This document shows, one piece after another, positions 12,298 through 13,195 of a DNA stretch of 64,000 nt (its first letter is position 1; the number at the start of each line of letters is the position of its first letter). The notes under the pieces were generated by a model. That model was not told the origin of the DNA. It ran no database searches and saw only the letters and a program-made list of their open reading frames with translations. This stretch comes from Octopus sinensis (taxonomy: Eukaryota). The position numbers and the translations under genes are program-made. The DNA is taken from contig NC_043011.1 in assembly GCF_006345805.1 (NCBI RefSeq), forward strand, positions 67,158,464 to 67,222,463, read 5' to 3'.

Positions 12298-13192
12298 ATA
12301 TATAGTAAAGTAAATAAGAGGGCTAGCAGCAGGCTGTTTCGCCTCATACCGAAGGAATTAGAAATGGCAGTCTACTCCGATTTTGTGTATGTGAGCCGCA
12401 CGGGCCTTCGTTTTTGGAATCTCCACTTACAGAAAATGGAAAAAAACAGTCTTTGACTGCCATTTCTAATTCCTCCGGTATGAGGCGATACAGCCTGCTG
12501 CTAGCCCTCTTATTTACTTTACTATATACTGAACCTTACAAAGTTCCTGACGATAAATTTGTCGTATTTACATACCGAAATTTACCGGTAAATATTTGTT
12601 GGTTACATGAAAACCCACAGAAAAATTATTTACCATTTTTATTGCATTACCATGTGGATTCCTCATTCCATTACGATTACCCAGAAGGCGCGCATGGCAG
12701 AATTTTGGAGGGAAAATTTACGTTCCCAGTCGTTACTTAGTTTTAACATCTGCGCACTTCCCCCCACTATCTGATGTCGCTGGGTCAGAAGTGAGGGCCT
12801 GTGGCATTTGGTAAAGCTATCGAATATAGCGCCGATGACGGAAATCAAACTACTTTTCTATGTTTGTGATCCAGAAACATGTTCGTTATTAACGGTAAGT
12901 GACTGTTTGCGTATATTTGCTACTCCGGTTTTGTGTATGTGAGCCGCACGGGCGTTCGTTTTTGGAATCTCCACTTACAGAAAAGGGAAAAAACAGTCTT
13001 TGACTGCCATTTCTAACTCATTCGGTATGAAGCGAAACAGCCTGCTGCTAGCCCTCTTATTTACTTTACTATATACTGAACCTTACAAAGTTCCTGACGA
13101 TAAATTTGTCGTATTTACATACCGAAATTTACCGGTAAATAATTGTTGGTTACATGAAAAACCACAGAAAAATTATTACCATTTTTTTTTTG

Positions 13193-13195
<3 letters not shown>
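12298..13195 (+). mobile_element. Retrozyme-like non-coding element: 1.5 copies of a 548-bp unit plus a short 5' inverted segment, in (TA)n
   Basis: ctactccg at 12372 and 12920; 12298-12372 is the reverse complement of 12455-12527; HHR at 12826-12889. Confidence 0.7.
12826..12889 (+). ncRNA. Type I hammerhead with long stem II, U4C core variant
   Basis: atagcg-CCGATGA-cgga..tcaaac(loop)gtttgtga.tcca-GAAA-catg-TT-cgttat; palindromic stem III. Confidence 0.65.

Follow-up and report, generated by a model that had tools for sequence, protein, structure and literature searches.

Does a tandem repeat that carries a single hammerhead-like motif, and no obvious gene, represent a mobile element in its own right, or is it the remnant of a longer coding retroelement? 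Such a repeat lies within the 64,000-nucleotide stretch of Octopus sinensis DNA analysed here (the window), which is AT-rich (34% GC) and rich in microsatellites. The original prediction regarded it as an independent, non-coding and non-autonomous hammerhead element. Two observations detailed below uphold that view: the 548-nucleotide (nt) unit exists in many copies, and its insertion bears marks in the style of Penelope-like elements (PLEs). The kind of element is already known, as retrozymes from other animals, and the 548-nt family is a new example of it. In searches on octopus and cephalopod hammerheads, retrozymes and Penelope we found no published description of this family, which may be catalogued in PMC7229834 or preprint supplements, in Repbase or in Dfam.

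A partial tandem insertion in a TA-rich target

The two direct repeats of the element (12372-12643 and 12920-13189) are 95.2% identical across 272 columns, with a period of 548/547 and a spacing of 276 nt between them, and the element has a GC content of 40.5% (Table 1). Upstream of the body lies an inverted arm; in the alignment, arm and body share one base at their junction, and the outer end of the arm falls on a TATATA microhomology with the flank. The layout of 1.5 direct 548-nt units that had been predicted thus stands. The 5' inversion is likewise real, at 74 nt rather than the 75 bp first given, and (TA)n flanks occur on both sides, the left one being short and interrupted and the right one long (13197-13306). 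Self-comparison identified no second copy of the element elsewhere in the window.

Table 1. Features of the 548-nt element and its flanks, in window coordinates.
Feature	Position	Strand	Basis
Left copy of candidate 23-nt target-site duplication, made of 10 unique bases and a TA run	12264-12286	+	String match
Inverted arm, head-to-head (5' to 5') with main body	12299-12372	-	Reverse complement of 12455-12528, 74 nt, 97%
One full 548-nt unit, as a circular permutation; predicted RNA monomer start at 12884	12372-12919	+	Repeat comparison and contig joints
Small hairpin, within a family block of high depth	12447-12459	+	Predicted fold; depth peak 12448-12485
86-codon ATG open reading frame with hydrophobic start, judged a chance frame	12480-12740	+	Variants, Pfam, shuffles
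14-nt perfect palindrome about 50 nt before insertion 3' end	12580-12593		Self-match; second high-depth block, peak 12562-12637
Internal segment from 3'-end position to hammerhead; predicted to fold as a long arm extending helix I	12644-12825	+	Contigs, folds
Type I hammerhead-like motif	12826-12889	+	Descriptor match, family variants, folds, comparison with published Hydra-clade motifs
Partial second unit, 270 nt; insertion 3' end about 306 nt past predicted cut	12920-13189	+	Repeat comparison
(TA)n run with partial extra copy of target sequence	13197-13277		Sequence
Right copy of candidate 23-nt target-site duplication	13278-13300	+	String match

Within the window, the 23-mer that brackets the element is confined to 12264 and 13278, apart from a partial third copy at 13263; its first 10 nt occur three times in the 64 kb. 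It appears to be a TA-padded target-site duplication, for which we found no empty site. The published Penelope arrangement comprises two direct repeats, one inverted repeat and a target-site duplication (PMC3846280; PMC8557442), and among PLE insertion marks the 548-nt locus presents a head-to-head inverted copy, a partial tandem and an AT-rich target. A lizard PLE protein nicks AT-rich DNA in vitro and starts cDNA internally, downstream of the hammerhead (PMC11167929). The position of the insertion 3' end, 306 nt past the predicted cut, is consistent with such an internal start of reverse transcription. The 14-nt palindrome that precedes this end is a candidate protein-binding or reverse transcriptase (RT)-start signal.

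A type I hammerhead motif

Helix I of the motif has 6 bp (12826-31/12884-89), including a G-U pair in the locus copy, and is followed by the core CCGAUGA (12832-12838), which carries a U4C change in this copy. Helix II is interrupted: 3 bp (12840-42/12870-72), a 3x3 internal loop, 5 bp (12846-50/12862-66) and an 11-nt loop. On either side it has an additional base, C at 12839 and A at 12873, neither of which had been noted before. GAAA occupies 12874-12877, and helix III (12877-82) is palindromic, AACAUGUU. U17 of the GUU site is at 12883, with the cut predicted 3' of this base; GUU is named among the cleavable hammerhead sites in PMC3138052.

The hammerhead descriptor was satisfied in three of 3,000 dinucleotide shuffles of the monomer, and in none of the 3,000 when a palindromic helix III was also required. 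The motif is therefore not a product of chance, and the hammerhead with palindromic stem III and GUU site that had been proposed for this position is confirmed. Rfam gave no match at gathering score in the whole window, hence none for the other hammerhead-like motifs there either. At E<=10, the region 11900-13300 gave 25 matches, none to a hammerhead; all score under the gathering score and reflect hairpins and TA runs, and we rejected them as RNA families.

A many-copy family in public sequencing runs

Part of the 548-nt unit is present in 20 of 24 public runs, from five organisms. In four of these runs (X1, X3, X5 and X12, from three organisms), contigs were placed on the monomer at 85% likeness, numbering 559, 409, 47 and 1, respectively; relatives less than 85% alike fall outside this placement, and contig depth is not a copy number. 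Two runs thus hold 559 and 409 distinct contigs at 85-100% likeness, and the unit is found in a third organism as well. All 29 bins of the unit are covered in X1, X3 and X5, and the share of contigs that continue into unlike sequence is 0, 0, 0.13 and 0 in the four runs. None of the 24 listed runs is on record as RNA; X5 may be RNA, and the X5 contig that crosses the predicted cut is compatible with DNA, multimer or circle alike and so says nothing for or against expression.

The end of the unit is joined to its start (12919 to 12374, plus 2 letters) in two contigs of X3 and one of X5. Three contigs overlap to give a closed 548-nt ring: X5 record 18 (12770-12919, then 12374-12485), X5 record 19 (12431-12528) and X12 record 9 (12495-12829). 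The last of these, one contig at a depth of 2.47 and possibly an error, also shows a different strand-switch junction, and is the only listed contig that bridges 12643/12644 with at least 31 letters on each side. The same point is crossed by X5 record 20 (12629-12798, depth 182), with 15 letters left of 12644, and by X1 record 3 (12622-12789, depth 341), with 22. Among the pieces listed, no contig spans the whole unit or two hammerheads.

Depth reaches 1e4-1e5 across 12638-12808 in both X1 and X3, and the stretch from 12605 to 12826 is free of the 18 listed loose ends. Loose ends listed as continuing in unlike letters are at 12431, 12471, 12518-12521, 12565, 12598-12604 and elsewhere. By eye, some of those at 12431, 12471, 12565 and 12598-12604 resemble the 548-nt unit at low identity. 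The loose ends, together with depth peaks at the small hairpin and at the 14-nt palindrome, suggest diverged subfamilies that keep both blocks. A common A to G change at 12448 retains the affected pair of the hairpin as G-U.

Variation among the contigs bears directly on the ribozyme. Position 12833 is U in 6,164 of 8,070 depth units in X1 (76%), 8,032 of 13,078 in X3 (61%) and 203 of 320 in X5 (63%), so that the core of the family is mostly the canonical CUGAUGA. CCGAUGA, which had been put forward as a mark of the family, is instead a minority variant or one that has decayed. Most depth has C at 12886, which makes the G-U pair of helix I a G-C pair. Eleven changes are listed within 12826-12889, and none falls at C3, G5, A6, G8, A9, G12, A13 or A14. 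No helix pair is broken: one change restores U4, one is the G-U to G-C replacement, and the other nine affect N7, an extra base, the internal loop, loop 2 or loop 3. Several of these stem from one X5 contig and are not independent. Among the changes listed, then, core and stems are conserved across copies, and the lack of conservation that would have refuted the original prediction is not seen. The extra A and U17 are probably features of the family, as positions 12873 and 12883 are free of listed changes.

Helix III exists in three forms, all self-complementary: the 6-nt palindrome, an 8-nt palindrome (minor, in X5) and a 4+1+4 form, which accounts for 71%, 49% and 71% of depth in X1, X3 and X5, from one or two contigs each. 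The palindrome initially described, of 6 nt in helix III at the locus, is one form of three in the family. Self-complementarity of every form is as expected if cleavage takes place in dimers.

No conserved coding capacity

The only long frame is an 86-codon ATG frame with a hydrophobic start (Table 1), a length attained by 115 of 3,000 shuffles; Pfam gave no match to it. The frame has 25 listed variants, of which three are synonymous, 19 change a residue and three touch stops; the synonymous share (3/25) is not above the random expectation of 0.217. A majority change turns codon 26 into a stop, although a second change rescues this in part, the terminal stop is lost in most depth, and the frame is shifted in the second copy of the unit. 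We therefore rejected a signal-peptide gene at 12480-12740 on the basis of the codon-26 stop, the lost terminal stop and the random-like synonymous share. The claim that the element has no credible open reading frame holds in this sense: the frame exists, without conservation.

Searching with 150 PLE-like proteins by tblastn gave no match in 11300-14200. An RT plus GIY-YIG reading frame between the repeats is absent, as the interval measures 276 nt, has no tblastn match and is left by no listed contig. A spliced intron starting at the GTAAGT just past the hammerhead was also rejected, because no such joint is listed in X5 and these bases lie within a predicted helix. A tRNA-derived or Pol III promoter origin was rejected too: ARAGORN found no genes, and the A- and B-box-like words in the unit are too closely spaced. 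Scans of JGI metagenomes with two motifs of the unit returned no loci. The 548-nt unit is a permuted repeat, found family-wide and in many copies, in which the hammerhead fold is conserved and no open reading frame is.

Predicted folding

The minimum-energy fold of the locus copy is not a hammerhead, and the predicted pairing probability of helices I and II is about 0.2-0.4. With the majority substitutions, combined irrespective of linkage, it rises to about 0.8-1.0 for both helices; adding the 3-nt insertion in helix III lowers helix II to 0.3-0.5. An incomplete set of letters, those listed at the depth of X5 record 18, mostly adopts a different hairpin and leaves helix II at 0.02. Folded as a circle, the locus copy has a z-score of -3.06 (attained by none of 40 shuffles), compared with -2.22 for the opposite strand and -1.28 to +1.33 for six control stretches; the majority letters, combined in the same way, give -4.94 (none of 30 shuffles). 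In these models, the majority letters of the family favour the ribozyme fold.

Resemblance to the Hydra clade of PLEs

What at first appears to be an odd ribozyme proves to be largely a known PLE form. Minimal PLE hammerheads share with it an extra base between positions 9 and 10.1, an enlarged helix II and a palindromic helix III, the last of which implies cleavage in dimers (PMC4209133). These motifs sit in the pLTRs of coding elements, unlike the 548-nt motif, which belongs to a closed non-coding unit. PLE hammerheads are also described in PMC6765202.

A further likeness is to the Hydra clade. Among the 25 Hydra-clade families in File S2 of PMC8557442, we counted 10 that carry U at the cleavage site; a non-Watson-Crick pair borders helix II in 15, and helix III has the 4+1+4 form in 16. 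One listed Chara element has a C/A pair next to helix II. Almost all Hydra families are described as inserting into (TA)n, and the octopus family Hydra-1_Obim is given with U at its cut site (PMC8557442). The 548-nt family shows the same style, having U17, a mismatch flanking helix II, a 4+1+4 helix III and a (TA)n target. All 25 listed Hydra cores read U4, like the majority of the 548-nt family and unlike the C4 of the locus copy, and inverted, 5'-truncated copies are described for the clade as at the 548-nt locus. Unlike these elements, the 548-nt unit has no RT/EN reading frame, and its helix II is longer and interrupted. We found no sequence match of the unit to the Hydra PLEs, comparing the 5' part of Hydra-1_Obim by eye, and five short motifs of the unit are absent from the portions consulted of the published Naiad, Chlamys and Hydra consensus files (PMC8557442).

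Hydra-type endonuclease remnants are present in the window itself, at 5873-6321 and 27218-27533. A full HMMER search with the open reading frame at 5870-6208 (-) gave 1,916 relatives at E<=0.001; a word-index protein search with the remnant gave no match. Pfam named GIY-YIG in two of 10 scanned relatives, one of them above cut-off, and a 696-residue relative carries RW-, DKT, YRDD, CxCx5C, YIG, CxxC and CxH, motifs described for Hydra (PMC8557442). Proteins of the Hydra-type relatives also match the window at 27218-27533. Together, the two remnants indicate that Hydra-type coding elements were once active in this genome. No match was found between the 548-nt unit and the other hammerhead families of the window, and a 3'-end motif shared with them is not significant (117, 145, 15 and 108 of 300 shuffles reached its score). 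With no sequence tie found in these comparisons between Hydra-type elements and the 548-nt unit, the likeness appears to be one of style, and it is from style that a Hydra-clade partner is suggested.

A proposed route of mobilization and its alternatives

The explanation we favour, and consider somewhat probable, is that the locus is one aged insertion of a non-autonomous, retrozyme-like PLE derivative, most likely of the TA-targeting Hydra clade, which moved through multimers, cleavage and circles. Source loci with at least two units would be transcribed into multimers, in which hammerheads would dimerize by way of the self-complementary helix III; cleavage would then yield 548-nt monomers, and ligation would close some of these into circles. 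An RT/GIY-YIG protein from another PLE would nick a (TA)n site and begin cDNA internally, some 300 nt past the cut site. Copying round a circle or along a multimer could continue for more than one unit (1.5 at this locus); a second priming on the other strand would create the short inverted arm, and repair would duplicate the target. The locus itself, which holds 1.5 units and a single hammerhead with U4C and a G-U pair in helix I, could release no monomer.

The same derivative might instead have moved without circles, with uncut linear read-through RNA as template and the copies longer than a unit coming from tandem source loci or template jumps; the hammerhead would then be weak, protein-assisted or kept for some other step. 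This is rather unlikely in our judgment. In its favour, in the one PLE tested, that of the lizard, the ribozyme cut only in the presence of the protein, and hammerhead mutants had no effect on insertion in vitro (PMC11167929), while one of nine predicted Xenopus retrozyme dimers was cleaved in vitro and eight were not (10.64898/2026.07.22.740005). Predicted folds of some variants also misfold the core, and contigs can show neither a circle nor a cut end. Against this, the listed variation spares core and helices and three self-complementary forms of helix III coexist, which argues for selection on the ribozyme at some step; moreover, the retrozymes of coral, mussel and axolotl do yield circles (PMC7229834).

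It is improbable, although less readily dismissed by the missing gene than it might seem, that the locus is the terminal (pLTR) part of a 5'-truncated coding PLE, with the 270-nt direct repeats as pLTRs and an RT/EN reading frame in the source copies. Both its geometry and the style of its hammerhead match coding PLEs. Coding-type remnants in the window have their endonuclease about 3.3-3.5 kb upstream of the hammerhead, so the lack of a reading frame near the ribozyme is insufficient by itself to decide the matter; in addition, some listed loose ends have unlike letters, and contigs less than 85% alike were left out. A coding PLE, however, has its whole reading frame after the RT-start point, where the 548-nt unit has about 240 nt to the next hammerhead. 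Within that interval X1 and X3 reach the depth given above, a bridging contig comes from another organism, and no listed contig exits between the 3' end and the hammerhead; among the contigs listed, the continuation into a longer coding PLE that would have refuted the original prediction is therefore not seen. The unconserved state of the only long frame and the null tblastn result point the same way, and those loose ends that resemble the unit by eye may be diverged subfamilies.

That the locus is no retroelement but a satellite, or a local duplication, in which a hammerhead-like motif arose by chance is suggested by the lack of a hammerhead in Rfam and by the non-hammerhead best fold of the locus copy, and is very improbable in light of the shuffles (3/3,000), the spared core, the head-to-head inversion with duplicated target and the match to Hydra-clade motifs.

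On the basis of co-occurrence and pLTR phylogeny, it has been proposed that PLE machinery mobilizes retrozymes (PMC7229834; 10.64898/2026.07.22.740005). To this, the 548-nt family adds marks of the insertion itself and a hammerhead whose style points to one clade, Hydra, making the question of the partner testable by combining a Hydra RT/EN protein with 548-nt RNA. More tentatively, and with considerable doubt, the family might be one of large (548-nt) circular RNAs. Its hammerhead would descend from Hydra-clade PLEs, and its insertions would bear every PLE mark: head-to-head inversion, internal 3' end and TA target. If true, an animal retrozyme would be tied to a named PLE clade at the insertion level. 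The forms of helix III would then let subfamilies differ in the reopening of monomer circles: the 6-nt palindrome would need a dimer, while the 4+1+4 form could also close as a 3-bp hairpin.

Comparison with other hammerhead-bearing elements

Metazoan non-LTR retrozymes (PMC7229834; 10.64898/2026.07.22.740005) resemble the 548-nt family in having a non-coding unit of a few hundred bases with one type I hammerhead per unit, and further in a GC content below 50%, genomic copies longer than a unit, a long target-site duplication (a candidate one here), a self-paired fold (predicted here to be stable) and co-occurrence with PLEs. At 548 nt, the unit is larger than the 170-400 nt reported for invertebrate retrozyme circles and within the 51-972 bp of Li et al. 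(10.64898/2026.07.22.740005); the locus, with one hammerhead, falls outside their 'active' class. Its hammerhead is of the PLE (Hydra) style with a long, interrupted helix II, whereas those of retrozymes are described as canonical with loop 1-loop 2 contacts. Retrozymes have themselves been argued to be PLE derivatives (10.64898/2026.07.22.740005).

Non-autonomous Chlamys elements such as MRC1 (PMC8557442) are likewise non-autonomous PLE derivatives with pLTR-like repeats and head-to-tail multicopy insertions. Unlike the 548-nt unit, they are described from green algae, have 3' ends like those of their autonomous partners and belong to a clade mostly without canonical hammerheads. Plant LTR retrozymes differ more widely, having a type III hammerhead in LTRs and a 4-bp target-site duplication, in contrast to the type I motif and candidate 23-nt duplication here. 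Among other cephalopods, 235 hammerhead loci have been annotated in the giant squid (PMC6962438).

Other elements in the window

A second tandem family, with a unit of about 358 nt, lies at 55452-56767 (the 357-nt family of the original prediction). Its hammerhead-like motif, found at 56021 (-) and 56512 (+), differs from that of the 548-nt unit in having a U3 core; the circular-fold z-score is -3.24. Its tandem arrangement, head-to-head inversion and TA flanks reproduce the architecture of the 548-nt element, as first noted, and the reported lack of sequence similarity is borne out: blastn gave no match between the two units, and their local-alignment score was attained by 108 of 300 shuffles. 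The two families thus share no sequence that would support the suggested use of one mobilisation machinery. By eye, the two outer ends of the 358-nt family differ by about 45-50 nt, like a PLE tail.

A separate minimal hammerhead-like motif at 12139-12175 (CCGACGA ... GAAACGUC), also with a C4 core, directly follows a TA/TG microsatellite about 130 nt left of the 548-nt element and has no similarity to the unit.

The Hydra-type GIY-YIG endonuclease remnant at 5867-6850 (-) has an asparagine-rich open reading frame upstream and is accompanied by repeats at 2-715, 2107-2829, 7219-7742 and 15492-15842. A hammerhead-bearing repeat family occurs 3.5 kb downstream of it on the same strand (2361 -) and, inverted, at 7219-7742. 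Remnant and repeats are probably a truncated coding PLE with an inverted end. At 23851-30936, a 7-kb inverted duplication (96.5%) is centred on the mirrored Hydra-type endonuclease fragment at 27218-27533, with hammerhead-like motifs near both outer ends (23912 - and 30875 +) and another at 22631 (-); it looks like a head-to-head truncated PLE. These two other hammerhead families, about 3.3-3.5 kb downstream of PLE endonuclease remnants, may be the ends of coding PLEs and not retrozymes.

Further repeats and remnants occur in the window. At 33426-36850, inverted arms of 287 nt (99%) surround an array in which a 42-nt unit is repeated 70 times, with changes of strand, and open frames span this array. 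We take 16268-17161 (-) to be a Mariner-like transposase remnant, with a 97.6% partial copy at 57925-58456, and the reading frames at 40308-41960, 45265-45744 and 48681-50232 are presumably remnants like PIF1/Helitron helicase and non-LTR reverse transcriptase. Finally, two head-to-tail copies of a unit of about 711 nt (98.9%) occupy 59789-61222, and this unit contains a SINE-like repeat also found near 21372, 38453 and 47343.
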